IMG/VR virus record: IMGVR_UViG_3300034095_001474
Coordinates: 96,001-160,000 of that record
From: a virus
Lineage: Duplodnaviria; Caudoviricetes
Reading direction: 5' to 3' (one strand)
DNA: 64,000 nt
A model generated the notes under the pieces. It worked only from the letters and a program-made list of their open reading frames with translations. It was not told the origin of the DNA and did not search any database. A program made the translations under genes and the position numbers. How positions within the stretch are numbered: position 1 is the stretch's first letter; every line of letters begins with the position of its first letter. Positions 1 through 46,953 of this stretch are shown here, one piece after another.

Positions 1-1
1 A

Positions 2-622
2 TTCAGTAACGATTTTCTTAACTTCACGTGACAATGTTGCCACAGTGATTGGATACCACAATTGCATCATGATAGTTTCTAAGAAGTTTGTTAACCAATA
101 ACAATTAGGGTCAGTGTTCTCAATAGTCATAAGAACGTTTTTAACACCTACAACTGTACCCTCTGGTACTGCTTTGATACGTACTGGTAATTTACCACCA
201 TGAACATCGATAATGTATTGGAATTTAGATTTGTCAAAGACATCATCACGACCAAACACACCAAGTTCAGTACCCAAGTACTCATATGCTTCATCTAATT
301 CTTCTTGTGTGAAGGCAACACCCTCTAAATATTCTTTGATGAACATTTCAAGACCATACCATACTGTTTCACTGAAACGACCACCACGTGATTCCATGTA
401 TGAATAAACAGTTGTTGTGTTTTCTTCATAGAATTTGTGGTGCGAGTACTTATAAGCATCACCCATAAGTACAAGATTGTTAGGTTTATCCATTGCTTTT
501 GAGATAAGACCTTCCAATGTTTCGATTGAAGACCAATCTTTATTTTTGATTGCCTCTGCCAATCTAGTTTTAATCACTTCTTTAAGTGCTAAACTTTTTA
601 AATTTTTATTTTCTGATTCCAT
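2..622 (-). CDS. nadV: Nicotinamide phosphoribosyltransferase (NAMPT), N-terminal part; runs off the window start and is absent from the ORF track
   Basis: Manual translation from ATG 622: MESENKNLKSL...LMGDAYKYSH...YSYMESRGG...GKLPVRIKAVPEGT...WLTNFLET...LWYPITVATLSRE, typical NAMPT motifs. Confidence 0.93.
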   Translation of the reverse strand, partial: MESENKNLKSLALKEVIKTRLAEAIKNKDWSSIETLEGLISKAMDKPNNLVLMGDAYKYSHHKFYEENTTTVYSYMESRGGRFSETVWYGLEMFIKEYLEGVAFTQEELDEAYEYLGTELGVFGRDDVFDKSKFQYIIDVHGGKLPVRIKAVPEGTVVGVKNVLMTIENTDPNCYWLTNFLETIMMQLWYPITVATLSREVKKIVTE

Positions 623-623
623 A

Positions 624-962
624 CTATTTTGTATTTATTATTATTGTGGGTTTCCCTAATTTTTCAGCTTTTGTTATGCTATCTTTAGTCCCTTTACTTT
701 CACCATCCCAAAATGCTATGATAGTATCAGCGTTGTTAACGATATAGGTATTTCTCAATACTCCAGCTGCTGCACCATGTTTTTTCCAATCTGGTTTAAA
801 TATAAGTGTTTCGATATTATTCTCTTTGGCATATCTTTCACCCAATGAGTCAGCACCATTCGCACCACCACTAACCAATAATTTTATTTGAAATGGTGAT
901 AATGTGGTTTTAACCAATTCATAGTCATCAAAACCTCTGCTACCAATTACTGCTACTTTCAT
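624..962 (-). CDS. SLOG-superfamily protein (DUF2493/YspA-like)
   Basis: VAVIGSR, VSGGANGAD, AGVLRN, AFWDGESKGT motifs; ends in TAG. Confidence 0.8.
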   Translation of the reverse strand: MKVAVIGSRGFDDYELVKTTLSPFQIKLLVSGGANGADSLGERYAKENNIETLIFKPDWKKHGAAAGVLRNTYIVNNADTIIAFWDGESKGTKDSITKAEKLGKPTIIINTK

Positions 963-1960
963 GAGATACTTTCTCCATATTTAACTTTAGCGTTTTCAAT
1001 AGCTGTTGGTATTTTAGCATTTTCCAATATGTTATTTTTAGACAAATAAACACACAAGTTAGCATACAAGTCTCTATGTTCAACCATGATGTCTTTATCA
1101 ACGTTGATATTCTTAGGTTCAACCCAATGCAATGAAGCGATATCATCAGATGGTTCAATACGTCCCCATAAGAACTTACCAATAAACAATGTTGTCATGA
1201 TACCAGATTCTGTTTTACCATATCTCCAATCAGTAACAGCACCACTGCAAACATATTTAATATCATCGATTTCAGCGTTACCACCAGTTTCTTCTTTAAA
1301 CTCACGTTTTGCTGCTTCTTCCCAAGTCAAATCAGTTCTATCAACGAAACCACCGATAAAACGGTAGAAGTCTTCATTTGGTTTTTTAGCCAAAAGGATT
1401 TGTCCTTTATCGTTGTATACTGTAATATCTACTGTTGGATATGTAACTGGTCTAGCAGCATATGTTGCGTGGATTACACCAGCTCTAAAGTCCTCAGAAG
1501 CCAAGATTTCTTTTGATACTTGTTTACGAACTTCAGTACCAGAATACAATATATCAGTTATCAATTCAACAACAGCATATTTTCCAGAATAGTAAGGAAT
1601 AAATGAATCACGACTACCATATAATACTGCACTCAAAGAGCTGCGTTCACCAAAAGGTACTTGGATTTGGTTGTCTAACTCTCTTGACCATTTTTCGTTA
1701 GACCTTTGGTCTTTCAATGGTAATACAATCACATTTGGATAAGATTGTTTAATCATCGCTTCTCTAGATGCATAATCCAATGGATTTGATTTTGTGTTTC
1801 CAATAACTGGTACACCCAAGAAAATAACTACTTTTTTATGATTTTCAATAACCTTATCAATAAGACTGATTTGCCCTTCATGCAATTTATGCACTTGGAA
1901 TCTTGCTACAATAACACCGATTTCGTAATCAGTTGGATTGATATTTGATTTAACTTCCAT
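959..1960 (-). CDS. nadM: Bifunctional NMN adenylyltransferase / Nudix (ADP-ribose pyrophosphatase)
   Basis: ARFQVHKLHEGQ nucleotidyltransferase motif, SNPL, SGTEVR; Nudix box GGFVD...AAKREFKEETG. Confidence 0.9.
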   Translation of the reverse strand: MEVKSNINPTDYEIGVIVARFQVHKLHEGQISLIDKVIENHKKVVIFLGVPVIGNTKSNPLDYASREAMIKQSYPNVIVLPLKDQRSNEKWSRELDNQIQVPFGERSSLSAVLYGSRDSFIPYYSGKYAVVELITDILYSGTEVRKQVSKEILASEDFRAGVIHATYAARPVTYPTVDITVYNDKGQILLAKKPNEDFYRFIGGFVDRTDLTWEEAAKREFKEETGGNAEIDDIKYVCSGAVTDWRYGKTESGIMTTLFIGKFLWGRIEPSDDIASLHWVEPKNINVDKDIMVEHRDLYANLCVYLSKNNILENAKIPTAIENAKVKYGESIS

Positions 1961-2037
1961 ATTTATCTTTTTTTATTTATAATACAAATGTATAAAAAAA
2001 TTCCCAATAAAACAAATTATTGGGAATCTTTTTTGAT

Positions 2038-3378
2038 TTATTTTGTTTGAAAACCCATTGTGGATTTCTCTTTCTCCACTTGACTAGAATAGAACCCTTT
2101 GTATGATTCATTAACCAATGAAACAGTGTCGTCAATTGACCAATTTTCATCATCTTCTGACATTTCTTTGATATTGTCAGCCAAGTTTGCAATAAATGCA
2201 CCAGTTATTTTAACTTTCTTGCCATTGATGGTTCCAGTCAATGCATCATAAACTTCTTTAACTTGCCATCTTTCTGGTAAATGGATATTACAAACTCTTT
2301 CAATTTGTTTCTCATCCAAGAATGAATAATCCAATGTGAAGTTAAAACGTCCAGGTCTTTCCGCAGCTTTATCAACCAAACCTTTATCGTTTGTAGATGC
2401 CAACAAACTGATTTTACGTTTCTTAACCCCATCAAAGAATGATAAGAATTGACCCAATAATCTTGTGTAACTTCCGTTATCACGTGAACCTAAGTATAAA
2501 TCGATATCATCCATAATGATAACGGCATTTTCAAAAATCTCACATGCTTCCATGATTGATGTCAAATCATCACTATTACCAAAATCTGGTATAATGAATG
2601 TAACATTAGGAATCAATTTACGTGCAATCTCACGAATGGATTCTGTTTTACCAGTTCCTGGTTCTCCGTTGAATAGGTATCTGGCATTTCCACCTCTACC
2701 AACACGACTAATAAAGTGTTCAATAAATTTTGTTTGAACATCATTCAACACTAATTCATTGCTAGATTCAACAATGTCAATTATTTCAATACCTTTGAAT
2801 CTACCTTCTCTCAATTTAACTTTGATACATTTTCCTCTGTATTCTGAGTTATTGAAAGCTAAAATCTTTATTTTTTTAAACAATTCAACAATTTTGGTGT
2901 ATTCAATACCTTTTTTACAAGTAATATTGATTTGATTAACCAACTCATTTCTTCCGTCAATAAACATTTTAGTTTGAAATACGTAATCGTTATCATCACC
3001 TTCAAATTTGCTGTTGAACCAAAATGAACCAGTAATTTCAAAACTACCACCAAATGTTATTCTACCAATACTATCTGTTATCCCATAAGATGAAACTTTG
3101 ATTTGGTTTTGTTTACCTTTAAAACACTCATATAAATAAGCATTAAAAATTGCGAATTCTATGAAACTTACTTCTTCACAATATGAATTTGTAGGATAAT
3201 CATCATCATCATCTTCATCATCATAACCATATTCATCTTTATCTGATTTTACACCAAAATCTTCATTGACAACATCATCATGACTTGATGATTCCAAATC
3301 ATCAATTTGTATTTTAATACTTGAAAGTTTCAAAAGTTCTCTTTCAAATTTTTTCGGTAATCTGTGTTTTTCGCTCAT
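2038..3378 (-). CDS. AAA+ ATPase with acidic N-terminus
   Basis: Walker A GEPGTGKT, Walker B IIMDDID, sensor STN, RPGRF. Confidence 0.85.
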   Translation of the reverse strand: MSEKHRLPKKFERELLKLSSIKIQIDDLESSSHDDVVNEDFGVKSDKDEYGYDDEDDDDDYPTNSYCEEVSFIEFAIFNAYLYECFKGKQNQIKVSSYGITDSIGRITFGGSFEITGSFWFNSKFEGDDNDYVFQTKMFIDGRNELVNQINITCKKGIEYTKIVELFKKIKILAFNNSEYRGKCIKVKLREGRFKGIEIIDIVESSNELVLNDVQTKFIEHFISRVGRGGNARYLFNGEPGTGKTESIREIARKLIPNVTFIIPDFGNSDDLTSIMEACEIFENAVIIMDDIDLYLGSRDNGSYTRLLGQFLSFFDGVKKRKISLLASTNDKGLVDKAAERPGRFNFTLDYSFLDEKQIERVCNIHLPERWQVKEVYDALTGTINGKKVKITGAFIANLADNIKEMSEDDENWSIDDTVSLVNESYKGFYSSQVEKEKSTMGFQTK

Positions 3379-3399
3379 ATCTTTTTTTTTTATTTTTAA

Positions 3400-3990
3400 T
3401 TAATTATGGTCTACTTGTTCAACTTCTTTTGACATCATATTTTGTTTAACATCAGTATAATGTATTGGACAATAATCCCAACCATTACAACCCATATCCA
3501 AAACTTTACGTTTGTAGTATTCTGGGTTTTGTTTAACTAAACTCTGATGACAATGACCATGTAAATGCCAATCCCCATGATGTGCTTTGTCCCATGAAAG
3601 TATTGGGTAATGCATCATCATAATCCCTTGACGTTTTCTAGGACTATCTTCGTCTGGTACTGAAAGATTGATATAGTCACTTATCGTTTCAAAACGATTT
3701 AGTTTTCTAATATCTTTTTCATCATCATGATTTCCCAATATATAATGTATCTTACCATTTAAACGTTTAACGATTTCTTGTGTTTGTTTTCCACTTCTAT
3801 CGAATGATAAATCACCCAAATAAAAGACAACATCGTTAGCAGCAATATAATGGTTCCAGTTTTCTATCAAGGACTCATTCATTTCTTCCACATCTTTGAA
3901 TGGTCTACCATCATATTTTATCACATTTGCATGGCAAAAATGATAATCAGATGTAAACCAAACATTTTGATGGTCTAATTTTATTCTCAT
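3400..3990 (-). CDS. Calcineurin-like metallophosphoesterase
   Basis: SDYHFCH, LGD, GNHD, HLHGHCH. Confidence 0.88.
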   Translation of the reverse strand: MRIKLDHQNVWFTSDYHFCHANVIKYDGRPFKDVEEMNESLIENWNHYIAANDVVFYLGDLSFDRSGKQTQEIVKRLNGKIHYILGNHDDEKDIRKLNRFETISDYINLSVPDEDSPRKRQGIMMMHYPILSWDKAHHGDWHLHGHCHQSLVKQNPEYYKRKVLDMGCNGWDYCPIHYTDVKQNMMSKEVEQVDHN

Positions 3991-4577
3991 TTGTTTTCTA
4001 ATTTAGCTTTTAATTGTGCCAACACTCCGTTGGTGTCACCCAAAGTGAAAGTAGCGGTTCTATCTGCTTTCTTTTCTATTTTCTTAACTGCTGACTGAAC
4101 CTTGTCGTCAGTAATATTTTTGGCTCTACCCAATAACGATTCACGTCTGATATTACCCAACAACCAATTGATGTGTTTATCACCTTTTAGTGATTTTGTG
4201 ACTACCCAATTGAAAAACTCTTGTGCAACTGGTACTGACATAAAAGTTGTTGTACCTTTTCCAGTAACACCTAATTTCTTCTCACCAATTAGTTTGGCCA
4301 TTGCTGTTGTCTTATCAGCGTTATCATCAAACATTGTCTTCATTGATTTCATCAAATCAGTTTTGAACTGCTCAGTTTGAATTCCTTCTAGAATTTCATT
4401 TACTGATATCAAATCATCATTTGATAAAGCACATTTGAAGTCAGCTTCTGGTTTTTCATTAACCTTCTCAATGTTTGATACTGGCATGTAACTGCGAACC
4501 AAATGATTAAGGAAATTTTTAGCTTTTGGGTTTTCAAGCATTTTATCTAAGCTTGAGTGGATTTCTTCTACTGTCAT
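3987..4577 (-). CDS. Hypothetical protein
   Basis: 196-aa ORF overlapping both neighbours in an operon. Confidence 0.7.
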   Translation of the reverse strand: MTVEEIHSSLDKMLENPKAKNFLNHLVRSYMPVSNIEKVNEKPEADFKCALSNDDLISVNEILEGIQTEQFKTDLMKSMKTMFDDNADKTTAMAKLIGEKKLGVTGKGTTTFMSVPVAQEFFNWVVTKSLKGDKHINWLLGNIRRESLLGRAKNITDDKVQSAVKKIEKKADRTATFTLGDTNGVLAQLKAKLENK

Positions 4578-4951
4578 AATTGTAATAAATAATTAAAAGT
4601 TATTAATAATTGCATATAATGTAAAACTTGGTCTAAACCTATCACAACAAAGAAATCGTGATATCTTTCTTCTTTGTATAGTTTACTAGTCAACCTACTA
4701 GTAAAATAATCTGTTATCCAGTGAGTAACAAAGATAACAATAAATGATAACCAAATACCTAAACTAGAAATATGAATAGACGTAAAAGGAAACACAAAAG
4801 ACCACATAACAATTGTTGTAAATGCATAAACTAAAACATGTAGACTTAGATAGTAATTGCTACTACTTTTTCTTATACTCATATGATGTGTTTGTAATAC
4901 GAAATCAGCAAACCAATGTACAATCAATATAAATAAAACAGACCAAATCAT
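4574..4951 (-). CDS. DUF3307-like membrane protein
   Basis: HWFADFVLQ, H...THWITDY, DQVLH with hydrophobic helices. Confidence 0.75.
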   Translation of the reverse strand: MIWSVLFILIVHWFADFVLQTHHMSIRKSSSNYYLSLHVLVYAFTTIVMWSFVFPFTSIHISSLGIWLSFIVIFVTHWITDYFTSRLTSKLYKEERYHDFFVVIGLDQVLHYMQLLITFNYLLQL

Positions 4952-5352
4952 CTTCCAGAAATTATTTTGTTAATAATAGCTGAAACTGCTTGATTATCAG
5001 CTTTACCCTTATAATTAGAATTGAATTCTTTCATCAATAAAGGCATTGTTGTTAACCCATTGTCATTGTAATAACCTCTGATAATAGTTTCAATCTCATC
5101 ATCACCCATAAGTGTTGGTAAGTATGGTTTGATATACTCTAACTCATTTAATGATTCAGCAGTGTTGGTTTGTTTCAAAGACTTTTCAATTTTCTTTAAG
5201 ATACCCAAAACTGTTTCATCATCTTCTTTCCCAGAACGACCAGCTTCATTTTGAACTTCACCTTTTACTACCCCCAAAAAGTTTTTCTTTTCCATTTCTT
5301 TAGCTTTGAAAGCTATCATGAAATCTACATTGATTTGTTCTTTTAAATTCAT
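4948..5352 (-). CDS. GatB/YqeY domain protein
   Basis: LKEQINVDFMIAFKAKE...ELEYIKPYLP...GKAD pattern. Confidence 0.8.
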   Translation of the reverse strand: MNLKEQINVDFMIAFKAKEMEKKNFLGVVKGEVQNEAGRSGKEDDETVLGILKKIEKSLKQTNTAESLNELEYIKPYLPTLMGDDEIETIIRGYYNDNGLTTMPLLMKEFNSNYKGKADNQAVSAIINKIISGR

Positions 5353-5355
5353 TTC

Positions 5356-5688
5356 CTATTTTTTTAAAACTATATAATAATGATATCCTTTATCACTATC
5401 TGTTGCGTAATACGCATATTTTATCTCACCACTTTTAACTTTTGCCGAGAACTCACTTCTTTCTTCTGGTTTAGCATCCAACGCTATTTTAATATATTTG
5501 TTTTCAGCTCTTTTTACCTTAATTTCAGTTGTGTCGTTAGTGTTTAACTCTATCTTTGTTTCAACAACTTTTTTAACCTCTGTTTCAACATCTGGTTTAA
5601 CAGCTACCATTGCTTTTGTGTCAACTCTTTTCTTAGGTTCAACTTTTGCAACTGGTTTTAGTGTAGCTTTTTTGCGTTCTTCACTCAT
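5356..5688 (-). CDS. Hypothetical K/E/V-rich protein
   Basis: ORF track; TACCTTTG promoter upstream. Confidence 0.6.
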   Translation of the reverse strand: MSEERKKATLKPVAKVEPKKRVDTKAMVAVKPDVETEVKKVVETKIELNTNDTTEIKVKRAENKYIKIALDAKPEERSEFSAKVKSGEIKYAYYATDSDKGYHYYIVLKK

Positions 5689-5739
5689 AACTTTTAATTA
5701 TAATACAAAGGTACAATATTATTTTTGATTTTACAAATA

Positions 5740-6249
5740 TTATGAAACTTTTTTTACGTATTCTTTGAAAATAAATTTGAAACCATTTTCTTCCAATATT
5801 TCAGATATGTTTATTAGAGTCCATTCTTCAACGTTAAAACCTTCTAAATACGTATCACCATCAATATCACCCCATACTTCAGTCAAATATAATTTTTTAG
5901 CTATTGGGAAGAACTGTTTATATATTTCAGCACCCCCAATAACAAAATTTTCTTTTGGTCCATAGTTGATAGATGATAAACTATATTCTATTATAAATTG
6001 ATTCAAATCTGATAAAACAAAACCACCATCAGCAACATAAGTATTGTCTCTACTGATAATAATGTTATCTCTTTTAGGAAGTGGTCTAAACTTCTCTGGA
6101 ATTGATTCCCAACACTTACGACCCATGATAACTCGTTTACCAGTAGTTAGTTCTTTAAAACGTTTTAAATCACTTGGTATATGCCATGGCAAGGCATTGT
6201 TTCTACCAATAACCATATTGGTAGAAGCAGCAACTATAATGCTAATCAT
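5740..6249 (-). CDS. folA: Dihydrofolate reductase
   Basis: IVAASTNMVIGRNNALPWHIPSDLKRFK, VIMGRKCWES, RPLPKR, VIGGAEIY. Confidence 0.96.
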   Translation of the reverse strand: MISIIVAASTNMVIGRNNALPWHIPSDLKRFKELTTGKRVIMGRKCWESIPEKFRPLPKRDNIIISRDNTYVADGGFVLSDLNQFIIEYSLSSINYGPKENFVIGGAEIYKQFFPIAKKLYLTEVWGDIDGDTYLEGFNVEEWTLINISEILEENGFKFIFKEYVKKVS

Positions 6250-6437
6250 TTCTTTTCTCTTATGATTTTACCGTCTTTCTCGGTGATTGAAACTAAACTA
6301 TCTTTGCTTGAGTAAGCAAATGGTGTGAATACCATGGAGTAACCATGATTTATCCATCTTTTGAAGATTAAATCTCCTTTTGCGTTAAATAGATATAATT
6401 CATTACCTACTATCTTCTTTTTAAATGTTCCTTCCAT
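6246..6437 (-). CDS. Hypothetical protein
   Basis: ORF track, operonic. Confidence 0.55.
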   Translation of the reverse strand: MEGTFKKKIVGNELYLFNAKGDLIFKRWINHGYSMVFTPFAYSSKDSLVSITEKDGKIIREKK

Positions 6438-6655
6438 AATAAAACTATTGGATTATAAATGTAAATTAAATTAACTACTATAACCATAAAGTTTAAAAAA
6501 ACCAATGGCATTCTTTCATGATATATTGAATATATCAAAAACAAAATACAACCTACCGTATTCAATAGTCTTAACATTATTACGTCTTTTACTATAAAAG
6601 ATATCAAAACTATTATTGAGGCACAGTATGCCATTATTTCCATATTTTCAGTCAT
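6410..6655 (-). CDS. Small inner-membrane protein (YgjV-like)
   Basis: Three hydrophobic helices, LRLLNTVGCILF. Confidence 0.6.
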   Translation of the reverse strand: MTENMEIMAYCASIIVLISFIVKDVIMLRLLNTVGCILFLIYSIYHERMPLVFLNFMVIVVNLIYIYNPIVLLWKEHLKRR

Positions 6656-6657
6656 AA

Positions 6658-6858
6658 TTATTTACAGTTTAACGAATCTTTTTTATATTTCAACGATAGA
6701 GATAATACATGATATGTATACTCATCATTGAATTGATTGTTGAATAACTCTAAATATTTCTCAGCATTATCAAAGTGGTCACACATTGTGCATGACTCAA
6801 TAATTGCCATTGCTTTATCTTCAGCAGCAATTTGTTCTGGTGTTTTTTCTTTTTCCAT
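6658..6858 (-). CDS. Hypothetical protein
   Basis: ORF track, operonic. Confidence 0.55.
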   Translation of the reverse strand: MEKEKTPEQIAAEDKAMAIIESCTMCDHFDNAEKYLELFNNQFNDEYTYHVLSLSLKYKKDSLNCK

Positions 6859-6864
6859 GTTTTA

Positions 6865-7107
6865 TTAATTTAATGAATAATCCAACAACATTTCACATTG
6901 TTTACAATATGGTGGTGGTGTTTGACCTATTGGTGTTTTAATATAATCAATATTGTTTAATTTTCTAATTTCTTTTACTTTACAAAATTTACCATCTTCT
7001 TCTCTACAACTAACATAGCACATAGTTGCACGACATCTATTACATAAAGCTACTGGTTCACCACCATTAAACTTTATTATTGGGTTTGGTTTCTTCATCA
7101 TTCTCAA
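6865..7107 (-). CDS. Hypothetical Cys-rich protein
   Basis: CNRC and CKQC pairs. Confidence 0.55.
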   Translation of the reverse strand: MRMMKKPNPIIKFNGGEPVALCNRCRATMCYVSCREEDGKFCKVKEIRKLNNIDYIKTPIGQTPPPYCKQCEMLLDYSLN

Positions 7108-7540
7108 GTTTTTTCTCTTCCATGTCTAACAATCCTTTTCCAAATCTTTTGACACGTTTATAATACCTTTCTTTAACTCTATCTGATATCGGAAGAGAAT
7201 TACCCTCATCATCTATTCTAACAAATCTAATAGATGTACTCATAGCAACTTCTTGTTCACCAGTATATACGTTATGTTTTCTTATCTCAATATACAATGT
7301 AACTGATGTGTTACCAAATGTTGATACATTTGCATATACTTTGATAATATTACCAACCTTGATTGGTTTCTTGAAAAACATTTCGCTAATTGATAAAGTA
7401 ACCATTCTAGGTGTATCACAAATTTGTGATGCATATGCTGCACTACTTTGGTCAATCAACGCTACCAAATTACCACCAAACATATTAGAATGAACACCAA
7501 TATCACTAGTTTTACATAAATAAGTTGTCACTAATTCCAT
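7067..7540 (-). CDS. Acyl-CoA thioesterase (hotdog fold, YciA-like)
   Basis: NMFGGNLVALID, FKKPIKVG, GNTSVT, FVRID. Confidence 0.85.
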   Translation of the reverse strand: MELVTTYLCKTSDIGVHSNMFGGNLVALIDQSSAAYASQICDTPRMVTLSISEMFFKKPIKVGNIIKVYANVSTFGNTSVTLYIEIRKHNVYTGEQEVAMSTSIRFVRIDDEGNSLPISDRVKERYYKRVKRFGKGLLDMEEKKLENDEETKPNNKV

Positions 7541-7616
7541 TATACCTTTTAATAATAAATATCTTTAAAAAGTATCATATTTACAAAGGTACAAATAAAT
7601 TTAATAAATAACTAAT

Positions 7617-8105
7617 TTATTTTACTTTATTGTCAAGTTGACTATTATCTAAACAATAGCAATCACCTTTGAATGTCCAAGTTGGGTCTGAACCTTTAGT
7701 ATCAACCTCACCTTTTTTCTTAAACTCAGCCTCTTCAAAAAATTCTTCTTTACCTTTCCAACCAATTATCCAACCTTTGGATAAATCTGTTAATATTGCA
7801 ACAAAACAATAATAATCACATTTTTGTTTTGTATTGAATGCAAATATGTTTGCTCTATGGTGTGGTTCTGGAGCCATATTCTGTAGTTTCGTCTTTACGT
7901 CAATCTTCTTGTCTTTGATAATCATATCATAATCGTAAGAACCAACATACTTTGTTTTACTTTTATATTTATCCCAAACTATAATTTCACCCAATGCACC
8001 TACTTCATTCCCTTTACCTTCAGTTACCGAACCTTTCAACACATTGAATTCATATAATTCTTGACCTCGTTTTCTTTGGTCATCAGTTATTAAAATTTCT
8101 GTCAT
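7617..8105 (-). CDS. Hypothetical protein, possible PD-(D/E)xK nuclease fold
   Basis: E...YDYD...IDVKTK motif. Confidence 0.5.
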   Translation of the reverse strand: MTEILITDDQRKRGQELYEFNVLKGSVTEGKGNEVGALGEIIVWDKYKSKTKYVGSYDYDMIIKDKKIDVKTKLQNMAPEPHHRANIFAFNTKQKCDYYCFVAILTDLSKGWIIGWKGKEEFFEEAEFKKKGEVDTKGSDPTWTFKGDCYCLDNSQLDNKVK

Positions 8106-8113
8106 AATTAAGA

Positions 8114-8374
8114 TTATTTTTTCTTTGGTTCTTCAATCAACATTTTTGTTAATTGTTTGATTGATTCAGTAATCAACTCATCTTTTTTTGCGTAATCATT
8201 TTGTTCAGCAACATGTATAAGTGTGCATAATGCTTCACATACACATGCAATGTCATTCACAATCATTTTTGCTGCTTCTTCTTTATTTACTGGTGGTTCA
8301 TTCTCTGGACCTTTACCAATAAGAATTTGTTGCTCTCTTTCAGTGTCAACATCAATGTAAATTGTATTTTTCAT
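8114..8374 (-). CDS. Hypothetical protein
   Basis: ORF track. Confidence 0.55.
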   Translation of the reverse strand: MKNTIYIDVDTEREQQILIGKGPENEPPVNKEEAAKMIVNDIACVCEALCTLIHVAEQNDYAKKDELITESIKQLTKMLIEEPKKK

Positions 8375-8445
8375 ATTAATATTTTTTTTACAAATATACG
8401 AATAAAAAACTAAAACAACAAATATTTATAATAAAATTAATTATT

Positions 8446-8592
8446 ATGGCAAAAGCAGCAAAAGGGGCTACTTCTTCGTCATCGAAGATTAGCAAAGGAA
8501 AAAAGAAAAGACCAGGAGTTCACTCTAAGTGTAAGACTTCAGTTTCTAAAAACGCTAAACATTATCAGAAAAAAAGCGTAGGACAAGGTTAA
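8446..8592 (+). CDS. 48-aa very basic small protein, below the ORF-track cutoff
   Basis: MAKAAKGATSSSSKISKGKKKRPGVHSKCKTSVSKNAKHYQKKSVGQG; ATATTTATA motif upstream, terminator downstream. Confidence 0.65.
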   Translation: MAKAAKGATSSSSKISKGKKKRPGVHSKCKTSVSKNAKHYQKKSVGQG

Positions 8593-8595
8593 AAT

Positions 8596-8624
8596 AAAAA
8601 AGGAGCTCAATGGCTCCTTTTTTT
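8596..8624. terminator. Bidirectional intrinsic terminator
   Basis: AAAAAAGGAGC-TCAATG-GCTCCTTTTTTT between convergent units. Confidence 0.8.
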
Positions 8625-8682
8625 ATTAATGGATTAACAAAAATGTTTTATGTACATCATTTCGTTGTGCACCTTCGGATGC

Positions 8683-8760
8683 ATATCGTGTTCAGTAAAA
8701 TCGTTTGTTCAGTCAAATCGTCTGTTCAGTGTCACTGAAGTCTTCGTTTCACTGAACACG
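8683..8760 (-). repeat. Three copies of ACTGAACA(N)ACGAT plus a GTTCAGTG/CACTGAAC hairpin
   Basis: Directly visible direct repeats downstream of the EndoVII gene. Confidence 0.6.
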
Positions 8761-9183
8761 TAAATATTTAATAGCTTCTGTTAGTATATGTTTACATTCT
8801 CGTAATTGACCAATAGCTGAATTACAATTTCGACAAAGTAACCCTCTAACTTCCATGGTTTCATGGTCATGGTCAACAAATAATCCTTTTGAACCACCTA
8901 ATTGATAATCTTTTTTACAAATAGCACATTTACCATTTTGATTATAATACATACCTTCATATTCTTCTAAAGTAATACCATATCGATATTTCAGCATTCT
9001 TTTCTTTGCTTCAAGTTTTACTTCTTCAACACTTTTAACTATTTTTGGTTTTCTTTCTTTAGGTGTATACCTAGCATTATTAGATATTGATTCGCATTTT
9101 TTACACCAAGAAAATAAACCATTTCCTCTCATTCTAAATTCACAAGAATCTTTATCTTCACCACATTTTGTACATTTTTTCAT
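8749..9183 (-). CDS. Endonuclease VII-type (HNH) homing endonuclease
   Basis: YGITLEEY...QNGKCAIC...VDHDH...VRGLLCRNCN; N-terminal Zn finger; start taken at MKKCTKC. Confidence 0.88.
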   Translation of the reverse strand: MKKCTKCGEDKDSCEFRMRGNGLFSWCKKCESISNNARYTPKERKPKIVKSVEEVKLEAKKRMLKYRYGITLEEYEGMYYNQNGKCAICKKDYQLGGSKGLFVDHDHETMEVRGLLCRNCNSAIGQLRECKHILTEAIKYLRVQ

Positions 9184-9258
9184 AATAACTTTTACTATAA
9201 ATATGTACAAAATTATAAAAGTTCAAATGTCTGAACATGGCAATATAATGAACACTAG

Positions 9259-9331
9259 TGTACCCGAAGAGATTCGAACTCTTGACCCCTCCGTTAAAAG
9301 CGGAGTGCTCTACCAACTAAGCTACGAGTAC
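9259..9331 (-). tRNA. tRNA-Lys(TTT)
   Basis: Cloverleaf, CTCCG-CT TTT AA-CGGAG. Confidence 0.92.
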
Positions 9332-9337
9332 ATATAG

Positions 9338-9411
9338 TCTCCCCGATTGGGCTCGAACCAATGACTCTCGCATTAAAAGTGCGATACTCTAGCCAACTGA
9401 GTTACGAGGAG
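9338..9411 (-). tRNA. tRNA-Lys(TTT)
   Basis: Cloverleaf, TCGCA-CT TTT AA-TGCGA. Confidence 0.9.
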
Positions 9412-9456
9412 ATATTATTTTTCCAATAACACTCGTAACCATTATGGCCGAGTGCC

Positions 9457-9498
9457 TTATTCCTTTTTCTTTCGCTTGATGTTGATAAGTGTTTTCAT
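9457..9498 (-). CDS. Lys-rich mini-leader ORF MKTLINIKRKKKE upstream of the tRNA-Lys pair
   Basis: Manual translation; followed by GCACTCG/CGAGTGT hairpin. Confidence 0.5.
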   Translation of the reverse strand: MKTLINIKRKKKE

Positions 9499-9533
9499 AA
9501 TTTAATAGTTTTTAATTTTTTTATAATAACGTC

Positions 9534-9632
9534 AGTAGGACTTAAAGGGAACCACTCATTTCTATCCCTTCATCAAACGGTAATTATCCGTTATTTGGCG
9601 TAATCCATACATTGCTGCACGTGTATCCTACT
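9534..9632 (-). ncRNA. CAGCAA-motif stem RNA (copy J)
   Basis: AGTAGGA/TCCTACT closing stem, GTGCAGCAA near the 5' end. Confidence 0.45.
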
Positions 9633-9637
9633 TATTG

Positions 9638-9709
9638 AGCGAGAAATGGGATTCGAACCCACGACCCTCTGGTTGGTAACCAGATGCTCTACCACTGAGC
9701 TATTCTCGC
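9638..9709 (-). tRNA. tRNA-Gly(ACC), A34
   Basis: GCGAGAA/TTCTCGC acceptor, U73, TCTGG-TT ACC AA-CCAGA. Confidence 0.88.
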
Positions 9710-9713
9710 ATTG

Positions 9714-9786
9714 AGCTAAAAATCAGAATCGAACTGATAACCTCTTCATTACTAGTGAAGTGCTCTACCAATTGAGCTATTTCAGC
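9714..9786 (-). tRNA. tRNA-Thr(AGT), A34
   Basis: Cloverleaf, CTTCA-CT AGT AA-TGAAG. Confidence 0.88.
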
Positions 9787-9845
9787 ATTGAGTGTGGTAG
9801 GTCAGCTGAACCTTGAGGCACCCACACTAGTTATCCCTCTTTTTG

Positions 9846-9916
9846 TGCAGAATGAGGGAGTCAAACCCTCGCCTCGGACTTGGAAGGCCCATGTGCTTTC
9901 GTAACACCTATTCTGC
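9846..9916 (-). tRNA. tRNA-Gly(TCC), somewhat degenerate
   Basis: GCAGAAT/ATTCTGC, TGGGC-CT TCC AA-GTCCG, T loop TTTGACT. Confidence 0.72.
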
Positions 9917-10008
9917 AAATTTCGAAGAAAGACAGTCACGGCCACCGCTGGAAATTCTTCTAATGTTAAAGTTTTGGCAAAATGTGGCTCGACCCAAATT
10001 AACACTTG

Positions 10009-10081
10009 AGCCTCAGATGGGACTCGAACCCATAACCTACTGATTACAAATCAGTTGCACAGCCAATCGTGCTCCAGAGGC
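10009..10081 (-). tRNA. tRNA-Thr(TGT)
   Basis: ACTGA-TT TGT AA-TCAGT. Confidence 0.88.
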
Positions 10082-10153
10082 AAATTGATTTTTATTATCC
10101 CCTTGAACTATGTCAAGTACATGGTTAAAAATCTAAATTCTACCTTAACTAAG

Positions 10154-10235
10154 TGAGGCTAGTAGGAATCGAACCTACTCAGCTTACGCAACAGATTTAC
10201 AGTCTGCCCCAGCTCTCCAACTCTGGCGTATCCCC
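10154..10235 (-). tRNA. tRNA-Tyr(GTA)
   Basis: GCAGA-CT GTA AA-TCTGT, long variable arm. Confidence 0.88.
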
Positions 10236-10242
10236 AAATAAC

Positions 10243-10302
10243 AGAATGGCATGTTGATTTTCAAATCCAAATTGAAGCTTTTTAATTTGCTGCAACCATT
10301 CT
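10243..10302 (-). ncRNA. CAGCAA-motif stem RNA (copy A) with an anticodon-like hairpin
   Basis: AGAATGG/CCATTCT stem, TTGCAGCAA, inner TTCAA-TTTGGAT-TTGAA. Confidence 0.5.
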
Positions 10303-10306
10303 TTAG

Positions 10307-10380
10307 ATGTCCGAGAGGGCTTCGAACCCCCAGATTCTCCCTTCAAAGGGGAGTGACTTTGCCAGTTTGTCTATCGGACA
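10307..10380 (-). tRNA. tRNA-Gln(TTG)
   Basis: U1-A72, CTCCC-CT TTG AA-GGGAG. Confidence 0.9.
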
Positions 10381-10437
10381 ATAATCTAATTCTACGCTCC
10401 GTTGCACACGGTCTATGAATTAGTAACAATCTGACAG

Positions 10438-10511
10438 TCGAATAAGCTGGATTCGAACCAGCGTGCTCGGCATTCCAAATGCCGCTAGATAAACCGCTCC
10501 TATACTACTCG
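10438..10511 (-). tRNA. tRNA-Pro(TGG)
   Basis: CGGCA-TT TGG AA-TGCCG. Confidence 0.86.
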
Positions 10512-10554
10512 TTAAAGTACGTTCCTATGAGTGTACGTACAACTGACCTCAAAA

Positions 10555-11208
10555 TTATTTCCTACCTTTTAACCATCCTTTATTAAGATAGGTATCTATT
10601 TCTTCTTTTTTAATTTTTTTGTTGGTACCATCTTTGGTTATCCAACATGTACCAAATTGTGAATTATTTTCACCACTTCCTTTACCTTTCATTACACTTT
10701 TAAGTAACTTTTTTGTTTCCTCAGAATGTTTCTTATTTTTAAAGTTACCTTCATTAGTCTCAAAATACTTTTTTTGAGACTTACTCATTTTATCTTTATA
10801 CTCTGGTGTTTCTTTTGCTTTAGCTATATTTAACATTCTTTGTTCTTTAGTGTTATTGAAATTGTTAATACCAGCTTCAGTGAAAACTTTTTTATGACTT
10901 TCAGACCAAATACGACCACCACCAGAACCACCCTCTTTTAAATTCATACAATTATTATCATTAATCATATCTGCGGTAATCGCTTTTATTTCAGCTTCAA
11001 TCAATAATTCTCTATTATCAAAGAACTCTAATATCTCTTTAACATGGTTTTTTTTACCATGTTTCCTTATACTATATCTTAATCTCTTTCCACTACCCAT
11101 ATAACCATCATACATGTTACATGTTGAGTGCATACCTATATAATATCTATTTGTCACCAAACAAGTAGTCTTATATAAGTAATGTATGTGCTTTTCTTTC
11201 CTTGCCAT
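10555..11208 (-). CDS. GIY-YIG homing endonuclease (Seg-like, NUMOD3 repeats) between two tRNA-Pro genes
   Basis: YLYKTT...YYIGMH, YMGSG, HSEETKK. Confidence 0.88.
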   Translation of the reverse strand: MARKEKHIHYLYKTTCLVTNRYYIGMHSTCNMYDGYMGSGKRLRYSIRKHGKKNHVKEILEFFDNRELLIEAEIKAITADMINDNNCMNLKEGGSGGGRIWSESHKKVFTEAGINNFNNTKEQRMLNIAKAKETPEYKDKMSKSQKKYFETNEGNFKNKKHSEETKKLLKSVMKGKGSGENNSQFGTCWITKDGTNKKIKKEEIDTYLNKGWLKGRK

Positions 11209-11255
11209 ATATTCTTTTTATATAAATATACTGCAAGGTACAAAAAAGTCAAGTG

Positions 11256-11328
11256 TCTAAATAGCTGGACTCGAACCAGCGGTCTCTGCGTCCCAAACGC
11301 AGCGGAATACCAACTTTCCCATATCTAG
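11256..11328 (-). tRNA. tRNA-Pro(TGG)
   Basis: CTGCG-TT TGG GA-CGCAG. Confidence 0.88.
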
Positions 11329-11422
11329 ATAATTTACATTCCTACTCTTGTATATGTACAACCCAAAATAAACCAATATGTCAAATAACTTTCCTAACTT
11401 GTAAAATGGTGTAGGTACCAAA

Positions 11423-11456
11423 TAAAAAAACCCGAAGTCATTTCTGAAATCGGGTT
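11423..11456 (-). terminator. Attenuator terminator of tRNA operon 1
   Basis: AACCCGA...TCGGGTT followed by a U tract. Confidence 0.8.
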
Positions 11457-11481
11457 TGGAATATCTTGTAATTAAGAAACT

Positions 11482-11577
11482 TTATTCTTCATTACTCAAC
11501 AGATATAACACACCCGATACACTCGGCTTTCCGCCTTGCGTTTGTTTCGGTTGATATGTGATAAATGTTGTTTTCAT
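11482..11577 (-). CDS. Leader peptide of tRNA operon 1 (K/T/Y/Q/P/G)
   Basis: MKTTFITYQPKQTQGGKPSVSGVLYLLSNEE; internal ATCGGGT complementary to the terminator 5' arm. Confidence 0.8.
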   Translation of the reverse strand: MKTTFITYQPKQTQGGKPSVSGVLYLLSNEE

Positions 11578-11649
11578 AATTTCTCTTTTTTTTAAATGGG
11601 TTTTTAGCCCGTTGTTTTAATAAATATAACCTTCTTTCTAAAAGTTATA

Positions 11650-11680
11650 CAAATGTACGAACTTTATTTTGATTTGTCAA
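11650..11680 (-). promoter_or_regulatory. Bacteroidota-type promoter for tRNA operon 1, followed by an ACTTTT-N12-ATATTTAT second promoter motif
   Basis: TTGACA...TACATTTG, i.e. TTG-N20-TAnnTTTG. Confidence 0.8.
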
Positions 11681-12113
11681 GTTTTTTCGTAACTTTTTTT
11701 TGTTTTTTTTCAATTTTATTCATTTCATCCCTTATTTCAGCAGCTTTTTCGTATTCTTCTTCTTCCAAAGCTATCGCCAAAAGTTCTTCAAGTGATTTAT
11801 TTTCTTCAAATGGTACTTCAGAAACTTCTAATTTCACCAAATCACCATCTTCTGTGTTCCATATAGACCTTTTGAAATATAAACCATCTGAATGAAATAA
11901 ATGTATTTCATGTGGTTCACCTAATTCATTGTCTATTTGATGTTGTTTATCAACATCAGTTATTTCTGAAAAGTTTTGTAGACTATCTATAATCTTTTTA
12001 GCTTTTTCTTCATAACTGTCATAATTTTTCTCTTTTCTAGGTCTCCCTCTTTTTTTAGACTTTTTATCGTTGTTATTAAAAAAAGCATCAAAAAGTTCAT
12101 CAAATGTTTCCAT
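11664..12113 (-). CDS. UVR (UvrB/C motif) domain protein
   Basis: LEELLAIALEEEEYEKAAEIRDEM. Confidence 0.7.
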   Translation of the reverse strand: METFDELFDAFFNNNDKKSKKRGRPRKEKNYDSYEEKAKKIIDSLQNFSEITDVDKQHQIDNELGEPHEIHLFHSDGLYFKRSIWNTEDGDLVKLEVSEVPFEENKSLEELLAIALEEEEYEKAAEIRDEMNKIEKKQKKVTKKLDKSK

Positions 12114-12114
12114 A

Positions 12115-12549
12115 TTATTTTTTTTTAGTTAATTTTCTGTGTGTATTCACTGCATGGTATTTAAAAGCCTTGATTGGATTTATATTGTAAAAGTACATAA
12201 ATAATATGAAAAAAGCAAATGCTAACATATACATTATTGATATTGTTAACCAATAACTCTTTGTAAGTAACGTTATTGTATAAACAACTATATCATAACC
12301 CAATGGATTTAAAAATAAAGCAATTGCAATAAATATATTTCCCCAGTTAATTTTCTTTAATTTAAAGAATAAATGTGAAAATAAGAATGATACAAATGCC
12401 AATCCATAAAGAATGTACATTGTAACCCAATAATCGTTTGTTAATTGTGTCAGTTTGAACACTAAAATGTCGAACCCAAATGGGTTTAGAAAAGTCGCTA
12501 TCACCAGACAAACTGTCCCCAGTGCTTTTCTGTTCACCACTATCATCAC
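12115..12549 (-). CDS. Membrane protein with an internal duplication
   Basis: FLNPFGFD...YW and FLNPLGYD...YW repeats. Confidence 0.65.
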   Translation of the reverse strand: MMIVVNRKALGTVCLVIATFLNPFGFDILVFKLTQLTNDYWVTMYILYGLAFVSFLFSHLFFKLKKINWGNIFIAIALFLNPLGYDIVVYTITLLTKSYWLTISIMYMLAFAFFILFMYFYNINPIKAFKYHAVNTHRKLTKKK

Positions 12550-12601
12550 TATCCATCTTGTTTTTTTTAGTTACAATCACATTATATTAATTTTATGATT
12601 C

Positions 12602-20709: not shown

Positions 20710-20808
20710 TTTTCTTTTAATTTAATTGTTAATAATAAACTTTTAACAAAGGTACAAAACTTATTTCGATAAAACAAATATATTCGTAAATATTTTTAAA
20801 TTTTTTTG

Positions 20809-20879
20809 AAATTCATACTGGGCTCGAACCAGTGTCTGATGGCTTATCGCCCTCCGTGGTGCCACTCCACTAATGAATC
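20809..20879 (-). tRNA. Degenerate tRNA-like gene (Ile GAT-like, aberrant anticodon loop)
   Basis: Good acceptor, D and T arms; loop reads GGC-GATAA-GCC, no U33. Confidence 0.45.
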
Positions 20880-20976: not shown

Positions 20977-21055
20977 TTGCGATTTGAGGAATTGAACCTC
21001 ACGGGGGTATATCTACCAATTCGTCTCATGAAAACGACCCTACACCATTATCGCA
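20977..21055 (-). ncRNA. tRNA-like RNA with a CAT anticodon hairpin placed before the D-loop-like sequence
   Basis: TGCGAT/ATCGCA stem, TCGTT-TT CAT GA-GACGA, AATTGGTAG, T arm TGAGG-TTCAATT-CCTCA. Confidence 0.45.
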
Positions 21056-21061
21056 ATTTTG

Positions 21062-21219
21062 TTCCGATGGAAGGACTCGAACCTTCATTCTCTGGTAAAG
21101 CCACCAGCGATGTATTCCTTTCTACGTTTGTTAAACCATCAGCTTCGTATTGTACACTACTAGGCTTGAAAACCAAACATTCTTTTATACCAAAAGGCAA
21201 CCAATTCATCTTCATCGGG
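21062..21219 (-). ncRNA. 158-nt tRNA-like RNA (acceptor stem + T arm, large interior)
   Basis: CCGATG/CATCGG and GAAGG-TTCGAGT-CCTTC. Confidence 0.45.
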
Positions 21220-21292
21220 TGAAGTTTATAAGGGCCGAGAGATTTACCTCCAGACTTCCACCACTTTGTTTTACTAAACAAAGAAAATAAGT

Positions 21293-21419
21293 AAAAGAGA
21301 AGCTTTGGGTCTTTCGGGGTTTCTGATTGAATGCAATGAGTAAGCTCTACCTACTATAAACCCTTTTTCGGTAATTAATACACTCTACCTTTCAATTACA
21401 GCTTAACTACTTCTCTTTA
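21293..21419 (-). ncRNA. Possible structured RNA
   Basis: AAAGAGAAG/CTTCTCTTT closing stem in a non-coding gap. Confidence 0.25.
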
Positions 21420-21421
21420 TG

Positions 21422-21528
21422 TACAGAATAAAGGATTCGAACCTTTGAGTCCCCGTGTATAGGTATCATACATACCACATTCCCAGACTTTATGTATGCT
21501 CAACCTTAAGCCACTCGGTCAATTCCAT
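21422..21528 (-). ncRNA. Class-II tRNA-like RNA with an 18-nt anticodon loop
   Basis: D arm ACC-GAGTGGCTTAA-GGT, CATACAT/ATGTATG stem, T arm AAAGG-TTCGAAT-CCTTT. Confidence 0.45.
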
Positions 21529-21615
21529 ATTTGAGGCTGAGAAGACCTCTGTGTTGTTATAAAAGAAATGTTTAACATTTCTACGTTCCTTTCTCAATGG
21601 AACAACACAATATTT

Positions 21616-21756
21616 GAGCATCAAGATTGACTTTTTTGTGCTAGCCAGTTACACCACACGCCCACACCTCTGTTAGGACATGCTGGGATTCGAACCCAGA
21701 CCCTTTGTTTTACAGACAATTTTGGTTTATTTGCTGAAACAATCTTTTGTATGCTC
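21616..21756 (-). ncRNA. CAGCAA-motif RNA (copy B) enclosing a circularly permuted tRNA (GTA anticodon hairpin)
   Basis: AAGATTG/CAATCTT carrier stem; order anticodon arm, T arm, closed acceptor CATGTCC/GGGCGTG, D arm. Confidence 0.75.
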
Positions 21757-21783
21757 TGTTTAGGTCAGAGGAACCTTCAATGT

Positions 21784-21920
21784 GGGGACAAGATTAACTT
21801 TTTTTCATACGTGCTCTACCACTGAGCTACCGACCTCTGCGAGACCAGGTGGGATTCGAACCCACGACCACGGCATTAACAAGGCTTGAATTTTTGGTTG
21901 CTGAAATAATCTTTTTACCC
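21784..21920 (-). ncRNA. CAGCAA-motif RNA (copy C) enclosing a circularly permuted tRNA (GTT-derived)
   Basis: AAGATTA/TAATCTT carrier stem; T arm GTGGG-TTCGAAT-CCCAC, acceptor CTGGTCT/AGGTCGG, D arm GCTC-AGTGGTA-GAGC. Confidence 0.78.
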
Positions 21921-21965
21921 TTGCAATATTCTACGCAGTTCCCCACGTAGAGTATTGTTTAACAA

Positions 21966-22601
21966 TTACTTGTTAGATGGTGTCACGTTAATTGACCCAA
22001 CTGAACCAGCTTTAGCTCTTTCGATACCAGCAGCTCTTTCAGCATCTAACTGTAAGTACAATTTAGTTACTTGTTCTTCTAAGAACTTGTTTTGAGTAGC
22101 TAATGTACCAATTTTTGCAGCATTTTCAGCAGCGACAGCTTTGTTCTCAGAGTGGATTAATTTAATCTCATTCTCATACTGAGTTTTCAAAGTTGCAACG
22201 ATAGTTGCTACTTCTTTTTTCACTGTAGCTTCAGTGTTAGTTCTTGCAGTGTCTAAATCAGAACGTAAAGTTGTTAATTCAGATGTTGCGATAGACGTGT
22301 AACCGTTAGATGTTAACCACTGAGTTACAACTCTTTCTTGGTTAGCTCTGAATGATAAGTCTAACTCAACGTCAGCTTGTCTACGTTTTTCAGCGTACTC
22401 AACTTCTAATGCAGAAATTGCTTCTTCTTTATTAGCTACTAACATAGTTAATTGCTCTGATTGGTCCGATAAAGTAGAAACTGTTGCAGTTGCTGCTTTT
22501 AATTCGTTTACAGCTTTAGCGATTTGTGCTGCTGCTTGTCCTAAAACTACTTCTGTGTTTGCAGAAGCTTTTCTTGCTGGTGTACTTTTTGGTGTTGCCA
22601 T
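21966..22601 (-). CDS. Ala-rich coiled-coil protein, directly upstream of the permuted tRNA-like RNAs
   Basis: 211-aa ORF with phage-like codon usage. Confidence 0.75.
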   Translation of the reverse strand: MATPKSTPARKASANTEVVLGQAAAQIAKAVNELKAATATVSTLSDQSEQLTMLVANKEEAISALEVEYAEKRRQADVELDLSFRANQERVVTQWLTSNGYTSIATSELTTLRSDLDTARTNTEATVKKEVATIVATLKTQYENEIKLIHSENKAVAAENAAKIGTLATQNKFLEEQVTKLYLQLDAERAAGIERAKAGSVGSINVTPSNK

Positions 22602-22667
22602 ACTTTTTTTTCTTTTTTTACTTTTTTTTTTATTATATTATGATTATTATATCCTTTTTCTATACTA

Positions 22668-22698
22668 CAAATATACGAACATTTTCTTTAAATGTCAA
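22668..22698 (-). promoter_or_regulatory. Bacteroidota-type promoter
   Basis: TTGACA...TATATTTG. Confidence 0.7.
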
Positions 22699-22780
22699 GT
22701 GTTTTTGTAATTATTTTTAAAAAATTTTAGTATTTAACTATTTGATTACCAATACTTTTCAATGAACTTTTTCTATACTA

Positions 22781-22811
22781 CAAATGTACGAACTCTTTTT
22801 GAATAATTCAA
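22781..22811 (-). promoter_or_regulatory. Bacteroidota-type promoter
   Basis: TTGAAT...TACATTTG. Confidence 0.65.
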
Positions 22812-46839: not shown

Positions 46840-46880
46840 ATTTCAATCGTTTATTATAAATATAATATTAATTCGATTTG

Positions 46881-46953
46881 TACACCTACAGAGATTCGAA
46901 CTCCGATTTAACGCTTCGTAGGCGTTTGTCCTATCCAATTGGACGATAAGTGC
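46881..46953 (-). tRNA. tRNA-Arg(ACG)
   Basis: AACGC-CT ACG AA-GCGTT. Confidence 0.9.

Follow-up and report, generated by a model that had tools for sequence, protein, structure and literature searches.

Adjacent tRNA-Gly(ACC) and tRNA-Thr(AGT) genes of an AT-rich huge lake-water phage as probable replacements of G34 isoacceptors

Phage tRNA sets, such as those of T4, T5, mycobacteriophages and huge phages, match the codon usage of the phage or replace host tRNAs that have been depleted or cleaved. tRNA-Gly(ACC) is stated to be universally absent, phages included, and the reason for its absence has been treated as an open puzzle (PMC8007984; bioRxiv 10.64898/2026.05.15.725136), for which the proposals include distortion of the anticodon loop, inefficient deamination and a cost to fitness. 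Our literature search found no published report of tRNA-Gly(ACC) in phages. For threonine, the tRNA-Thr(AGU) of Mycoplasma capricolum and Mollicutes carries an unmodified A34 (Andachi 1987; Inagaki 1995) and decodes ACU, ACC and ACG in vitro without inosine, as these results are cited in PMC11066159. The deaminase TadA of E. coli is reported to act with high specificity on the ACG loop: it leaves an ACC tRNA with an Arg-type loop unmodified, changes at position 32, 37 or 38 block the editing of other A34 anticodons, and unmodified ACC tRNA in E. coli favors GGU over GGC by 76:24 (PMC11066159).

Here we describe a tRNA-Gly(ACC) gene and a tRNA-Thr(AGT) gene that lie side by side in a 64-kb window (the whole stretch of DNA that was analyzed). 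The source of the window is an AT-rich huge phage of lake water. Its GC content is 32% with a strongly negative GC skew, its proteins are phage-like and include an ATP-dependent DNA ligase, and its 33 tRNA genes and one tmRNA gene (ARAGORN, Rfam) are all on the minus strand. The CCA-adding enzyme points to two uncultured huge phages, with genomes of 635 and 642 kb, as the nearest deposited relatives (38-39% identity of the enzyme); Megablast of 17 kb of the window against GenBank phages gave no match. All or part of the stretch is present in 20 public runs from 13 studies, mostly of lake water. The tRNA genes and associated elements are as follows.

9637..9709, minus strand: tRNA-Gly(ACC), ARAGORN and Rfam (73.5 bits), without encoded CCA
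9713..9786, minus strand: tRNA-Thr(AGT), ARAGORN and Rfam (70.4 bits), without encoded CCA
9787..9844, minus strand: spacer element with the inverted repeat AGTGTGG...CCACACT, which directly precedes Gly(ACC) in relatives
9845..9916, minus strand: tRNA-Gly(TCC), isoacceptor partner for GGA/GGG (ARAGORN, Rfam)
10008..10081, minus strand: tRNA-Thr(TGT), isoacceptor partner for ACA/ACG (ARAGORN, Rfam)
9258..11328, minus strand: tRNA operon with 10 tRNA genes in the order Pro, (ORF), Pro, Gln, Tyr, Thr(TGT), Gly(TCC), Thr(AGT), Gly(ACC), Lys, Lys
11482..11577, minus strand: 31-codon leader ORF MKTTFITYQPKQTQGGKPSVSGVLYLLSNEE, upstream of the operon
46880..46953, minus strand: tRNA-Arg(ACG), the classical A34 tRNA, presumably edited by host TadA (ARAGORN, Rfam)

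Both genes give elongator tRNA matches to Rfam RF00005 over model positions 1-71, with full-length cloverleaves by ARAGORN, and rank third (Gly) and fifth (Thr) by Rfam score among the 34 RNA matches of the window (gathering score 29). The anticodon arms are TCTGG-TT-ACC-AA-CCAGA for Gly(ACC) and CTTCA-CT-AGT-AA-TGAAG for Thr(AGT), with A34 corresponding to plus-strand T9677 and T9753, respectively. A 4-nt spacer, CAAT, separates the Thr(AGT) discriminator from the first base of Gly(ACC). The GlyRS identity set consists of G1-C72, C2-G71, G3-C70, U73, C35 and C36, and that of ThrRS of G1-C72, C2-G71, G35 and U36. All elements of the respective set are carried by the predicted tRNA-Gly and by the predicted tRNA-Thr, the latter with a U73 discriminator, so that both appear to be of the bacterial type. 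GlyRS does not read position 34 (PMC4928997). These results bear out the first-pass annotation, which had credited both genes with clean cloverleaves and correct identity elements.

Sequencing error at the anticodons, which that annotation had named among the findings that would overturn its reading, is refuted by contigs from two other studies, in runs that carry no flag as potential sources of the window. One contig of 1496 nt (run X3) spans 9335-10830 and another of 204 nt (run X5) spans 9607-9810, each with 0 differences from the window. Since these independent lake-study contigs are identical over both genes, and the same anticodons recur in the relatives G001 (Thr(AGT)) and L052 (both) and in more than 100 IMG/VR loci, an error of sequencing or assembly at both anticodons has practically no chance of being the explanation. 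ARAGORN called a further A34 tRNA in the window, tRNA-Tyr(ATA) at 20808-20879 (minus strand). It has G33 and an anticodon-stem mismatch, lacks the long variable arm of bacterial tRNA-Tyr and scores under the Rfam cut-off, and is probably not a working A34 tRNA. Several tRNA-like genes with insertions lie at 21000-23340 (minus strand), among them a 125-nt tRNA at 23212-23336 (Rfam 47.5 bits) with an insert of about 53 nt in the anticodon loop. Relaxed ARAGORN settings gave more split or intron-bearing candidates at 21061-22077 with the common motif AAAAAAAGTTAATCT; short introns of this type are unusual in bacterial and phage tRNAs.

Neither Gly(GCC) nor Thr(GGT) was found by ARAGORN in the 64-kb window. 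The synteny of the operon is kept in G001 and in L031, L047, L072, L141, L027, L136 and L052. The window Thr(AGT) gene lies between the spacer element and Gly(ACC), with CTCAAT repeats on both flanks, and the tRNA genes appear to be mobile cassettes with CTCWAT at their junctions. The spacer element (55-58 nt; L002 2063-2120, also L031, L047 and L141) is conserved, and the tRNA gene that it precedes differs among relatives. Upstream of the operon is a promoter-like TTGACA-17-TACATT at 11680-11652, and a hairpin with a T-run follows the leader ORF. The threonine codons of this ORF are ACA (three times) and ACG, and its glycine codons are GGC, GGA and GGT; since it has no ACT, it is no probe of the codon that Thr(AGU) should read best. 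It does use GGC, a codon that makes up 2% of window glycine codons. A 217-aa ORF at 10555-11208 (minus strand), without a Pfam match and absent in G001, lies between the two Pro tRNA genes, and an endonuclease VII gene (8749-9210, minus strand) is directly downstream of the array.

A search of IMG/VR and the JGI metagenomes with the exact patterns of both tRNAs returned contig G001 as the sole match (IMG/VR, 53 kb; loci L002 and L019-L021). This contig, the closest relative, is syntenic with window positions 1-12556 at 72-80% nucleotide identity, and its array reads Pro, Pro, Gln, Tyr, Thr(TGT), Gly(TCC), Thr(AGT), Gly(GCC), Lys. Its Thr(AGT) gene (L002) is 100% identical to that of the window, against 72-80% in the flanks. 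Window Gly(ACC) and G001 Gly(GCC) are identical at 54 of 54 positions outside the anticodon arm and differ at 10 of 19 inside it. The stem is TCTGG/CCAGA in the window and TTACC/GGTAA in G001, and A in the window stands against G in G001 at position 26 as well as at position 34. The ACC/GGT stem ending occurs also in the Gly(GCC) genes of the two huge phages and is therefore the usual form. Vibrio phage matches to the pair proved irrelevant, being Gly(TCC), Arg(CCT) and Met genes.

Six further contigs (L031, L047, L072, L141, L027 and L136) have the array Pro, Gln, Tyr, Thr(TGT), Gly(TCC), Gly(ACC), Lys, Lys, in which Thr(AGT) is absent; their Gly(ACC) carries the anticodon arm of the window, and the changes in its body are compensatory only. 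In L052, which is 98% identical to the window across neighboring tRNAs, the order is Tyr, Thr(TGT), Gly(TCC), Thr(AGT), Gly(ACC), Lys, so that the adjacent A34 pair is present. Its Thr(AGT) is 97% identical to that of the window, with a compensatory change in the T-stem, while the Gly(ACC) in the same slot has a body unrelated to that of the window gene. A contig of run X14, a close variant at high depth, joins 9633 directly to 9710 and so lacks exactly the 76 bases with the Gly(ACC) gene. Near-identical phages thus hold four alleles at the Gly slot: one type of ACC gene (window), a second type (L052), GCC (G001) and no gene (X14). From the comparison of G001, the six contigs and L052, the slot turns over like a cassette, with ACC kept in two unrelated genes. 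The identity of Thr(AGT) relative to its flanks, the compensatory changes in the six contigs and the ACC anticodon of L052 argue for conservation under selection.

The first-pass annotation called tRNA-Gly(ACC) exceptionally rare. That is true of cells and of the literature; for uncultured phages it is wrong. A degenerate Gly(ACC) tRNA pattern matched at least 119 stretches in IMG/VR, and at least 117 Gly(ACC) genes in at least 112 loci, with at least 59 distinct sequences, were confirmed by ARAGORN; 14 of these from different lineages scored 54-74 bits in Rfam. The corresponding Thr(AGT) pattern was found at no fewer than 114 IMG/VR loci (at least 87 distinct sequences), and a few of the contigs hit by the pattern bear giant-virus MAG names. 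Glycine sets in arrays of at least 8 tRNAs, among the matches listed, were ACC with TCC (23), ACC alone (5) and ACC with GCC and TCC (1). The threonine sets, with the same array size and scope, were AGT (23), AGT with TGT (18) and AGT with CGT and TGT (3), with GGT in none. The A34 and G34 forms of these families almost never co-occur among the matches listed. Loci picked by the Thr pattern had 0 ACC against 44 GCC, and those picked by the Gly pattern 4 AGT against 21 GGT, again among the matches listed; on these counts Gly(ACC) is a small minority and Thr(AGT) a sizeable minority overall. Three probes of 43 nt for the anticodon arm, one of the window type and two from abundant IMG/VR lineages, had no match in GenBank phages, a search that required an exact 28-nt word and therefore does not show that cultured phages are without Gly(ACC).

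Several other features were seen in these IMG/VR loci. In L035 (3125-3815), Gly(ACC) has a manA RNA motif on one side and a permuted, alpha-type tmRNA on the other. Two Gly(ACC) genes stand side by side in L036, L037, L061 and L089, one of them with the odd loop AT-ACC-AT and a non-canonical T-loop. Further A34 tRNAs include Ser(ACT) (8 distinct sequences), Ser(AGA) and Leu(AAG), and one each of Val(AAC), Pro(AGG), Ala(AGC) and His(ATG).

In both families the lower anticodon stem varies with position 34. The counts below, in distinct sequences, are among the matches listed.

Gly(GCC): 31-39 is C-G in 82/100; 30-40 is C-G in 82/100
Gly(ACC): 31-39 is C-G in 6/59; 30-40 is G-C or G-U in 46/59
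Thr(GGT): 31-39 is C-G in 88/102; 30-40 is C-G in 87/102
Thr(AGT): 31-39 is C-G in 18/87; 30-40 is G-C in 56/87

A34 is thus rarely found on a G34-type stem. When glycine sequences were grouped into clusters by tRNA body, the contrast at 31-39 gave a Fisher p of 2.6e-5 at 85% identity and of 0.025 at 80%. Over 39 distinct ACC stems, 294 of 295 stem cells are paired, and U32 and A38 are found in 57/59 and 58/59 Gly(ACC) loops, respectively (both among the matches listed). Body-matched sequences allow single steps to be followed: L156 (GCC) and L086 (ACC) differ at position 34 only, L103 gains U31-G39, and L039 has G30-C40 with U31-A39. A 30-40/31-39 combination other than C-G/C-G looks like a context that tolerates A34. 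The covariation fits the published molecular dynamics prediction that A34 distorts the anticodon loop of native tRNA-Gly (PMC4928997) and the slowed growth of E. coli overexpressing a Gly(ACC) point mutant (bioRxiv 10.64898/2026.05.15.725136). The A34 stem pattern is like that of the U34 isoacceptors, in Thr especially, which suggests that some A34 genes may stem from U34 genes or from arm exchange; some A34 tRNAs may therefore not be compensated G34 derivatives.

Codon usage was counted in the 68 minus-strand ORFs of the window.

Gly (GGN): U-ending 684, C-ending 21, A-ending 195, G-ending 90
Thr (ACN): U-ending 350, C-ending 59, A-ending 408, G-ending 50

GGT accounts for 69% of glycine codons and GGC for 2%, and ACT and ACC for 40% and 7% of threonine codons. 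The suggestion that the two anticodons match U-ending codons in an AT-rich genome, for which a codon-usage comparison had been proposed as a check, is thereby supported (GGT:GGC 684:21, ACT:ACC 350:59). C-ending codons are rare in all four-box families of the window, beyond Gly and Thr. Among the matches listed from IMG/VR, loci with ACC have a median GC of 0.338 against 0.408 for those with GCC and a GGT/GGC ratio of 5.8 against 2.0 (p about 1e-12), a difference that remains below 40% GC. Codon bias alone does not explain the choice of ACC, because G001 has GGT:GGC of 540:34 and yet encodes GCC. GGC is depleted relative to the other four-codon boxes in ACC loci (p = 9e-4), and equally in AGT loci; no Thr-specific depletion of ACC codons was seen in AGT loci (p = 0.37). 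The evidence for family-specific codon co-adaptation is equivocal.

We think it probable that unmodified A34 tRNAs, on an A34-tolerant stem, replace the G34 isoacceptors and read GGU and ACU by Watson-Crick pairing in this AT-rich phage. Both genes put A34 in the place of G34 in a four-codon box of a genome with 32% GC, as expected for unmodified A34 decoders. They would be working elongator tRNAs, co-transcribed in the 10-gene operon, excised by host RNase P and 3' processing enzymes, given their 3' CCA by a CCA-adding enzyme, the phage's own or the host's, and charged by host GlyRS and ThrRS. The A34, most likely unmodified, would form Watson-Crick A-U pairs with the dominant GGU and ACU codons, and the tRNAs would thus take the role of the usual G34 isoacceptors. 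The neighboring UCC and UGU tRNAs would decode the A- and G-ending codons, and the very rare GGC and ACC codons would be read by host tRNAs or, weakly, through A-C pairing.

The window also encodes a set of proteins related to RNA repair.

29254-30429: RlaP nucleotidyltransferase
35267-36331: Rnl2-like ligase
39632-40789: Rnl1-like ligase
42553-43455: kinase and cyclic phosphodiesterase
52437..53552, minus strand: CCA-adding enzyme (tRNA nucleotidyltransferase)

The last of these is relevant here because the tRNA genes are without encoded CCA, and the kit as a whole suggests tRNA damage during infection. In the vicinity of the RNA-repair genes, the window encodes a PARP-like protein (33236-34543), a protein with an ART-PolyVal domain, and NUDIX and HD proteins.

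The first-pass annotation had left position 34 as either unmodified or inosine. Conversion of A34 to inosine by host TadA or an undetected phage enzyme, so that ICC and IGU would read U-, C- and A-ending codons, is unlikely in our estimate. The same genome does encode an Arg(ACG) that needs host TadA, the Gly arm of the window has U33-A34-C35 and A37-A38 in common with the Arg loop, and its G30-C40 and G31-C39 are the majority form of phage tRNA-Arg(ACG) (35/64). Set against the Arg(ACG)-type TadA loop (C32 U33 A34 C35 G36 A37 A38), however, the Gly loop UU-ACC-AA departs at two positions (U32 and C36) and the Thr loop CU-AGU-AA at two others (G35 and U36), and E. coli TadA is specific for the ACG loop (PMC11066159). 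A TadA/ADAT-like HAE...PCxxC motif was found in no frame of the 64-kb window. In G001, a 144-aa CDA-fold protein is encoded about 2.7 kb past the point that matches the first base of the window, as the sole such gene in the neighboring 40 kb. As a TadA this protein was rejected: it scored 24.7 bits against a cut-off of 150 for the TadA model, and its best matches are dCMP deaminases (PDB 7fh4 and 2w4l). Window and adjacent 40 kb of G001 thus yield one deaminase, of the dCMP type, and no TadA-type gene. Inosine would also make it needless to avoid C-ending codons, yet GGC is that rare. If it were present, ICC would be the first natural I34 glycine tRNA.

Two further accounts concern why A34 is there at all. 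The A34 and the re-written anticodon stem could be escape forms from a host nuclease, with the phage supplying resistant substitutes, as the first-pass annotation also entertained; we rate this as improbable. The full RNA-repair kit (two RNA ligases, kinase and cyclic phosphodiesterase, RlaP and CCA-adding enzyme), the turnover of the Gly slot among near-identical phages and the confinement of the window/G001 change to the anticodon arm (10/19 positions against 0/54 elsewhere) speak for it, the repair genes and slot turnover being circumstantial support. It is doubtful, too, that slot turnover and the coupling of A34 to the stem in Gly and Thr point to resistant substitutes beyond codon matching. 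No nuclease with Gly(GCC) or Thr(GGU) as its target is known to us. The published phage escape tRNAs known to us bear loop changes, whereas the loops here are canonical except at position 34, and the phage's other tRNAs have ordinary anticodons. Codon matching, but not escape, predicts the strong association with low GC and GGT bias. That AT mutation pressure turned G34 into A34 in unneeded, decaying or idle tRNAs is more improbable still. The AT-rich genome and the rarity of C-ending four-box codons in every family would suit such neutral leftovers, but the tRNA bodies are 97-100% identical against 72-80% in the flanks, and the stems are kept paired by compensatory changes. Moreover, ACC stands on two unrelated Gly bodies in the same slot and is retained in seven syntenic relatives, and the Rfam scores are among the best of the window. 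Replacement of the G34 isoacceptors by unmodified A34 tRNAs is thus the reading we prefer.

The existence of conserved, natural phage genes for Gly(ACC) and Thr(AGU) means that nothing forbids the anticodon as such. These genes also point to an accompanying context, a 30-40 and 31-39 combination that is not C-G/C-G. New here are the covariation of the stem in Gly and Thr alike, the body-matched pair of window and G001 and the turnover of the Gly slot. The window and G001 provide one tRNA body with either an ACC or a GCC arm, and L156, L086, L103 and L039 provide single steps, so that pairs are ready for the bench. Phage A34 tRNAs are natural material for testing why cells avoid Gly(ACC).

Among described systems, the Mycoplasma tRNA-Thr(AGU) shares with the phage gene its anticodon, an AT-rich genome and the replacement of a G34 isoacceptor by A34. 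It is cellular and part of a minimal tRNA set, whereas the phage Thr(AGT) adds to a host set and is paired with an A34 Gly. The Mycoplasma tRNA is known to be unmodified as RNA, and the phage one is known here from its gene. Engineered tRNA-Gly(ACC) has the same anticodon as the phage gene (Boren 1993; Saint-Leger 2016, PMC4928997; Schmitt 2024, PMC11066159; Raval 2026, bioRxiv 10.64898/2026.05.15.725136). It is charged by GlyRS, active in elongation, GGU-preferring and not deaminated. The engineered forms are point mutants in native G/C/U34 backbones, to which the phage forms add a re-written 30-40/31-39 stem. The bacterial tRNA-Arg(ACG)/TadA system likewise has A34 in a four-codon box, and the Gly arm of the window shares G30-C40 and G31-C39 with most phage Arg(ACG), but Gly loop positions 32 and 36 differ and no TadA-type gene was found in the window or the adjacent 40 kb of G001.

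With the tRNA sets of T4, T5, mycobacteriophages and huge phages, the locus has in common a large array in an AT-rich genome, coverage of favored codons and adjoining RNA-repair genes. Those sets are described with ordinary bacterial anticodons, while the window has A34 for G34 in two families. GCC and GGT are retained, unlike in the window, in LR745206.1 and LR756502.1, two related huge phages whose only A34 tRNAs are Arg(ACG) and one Leu(AAG). Our results refine the reading of phage tRNA sets in that A34 can replace G34 for U-ending codons in AT-rich phages.
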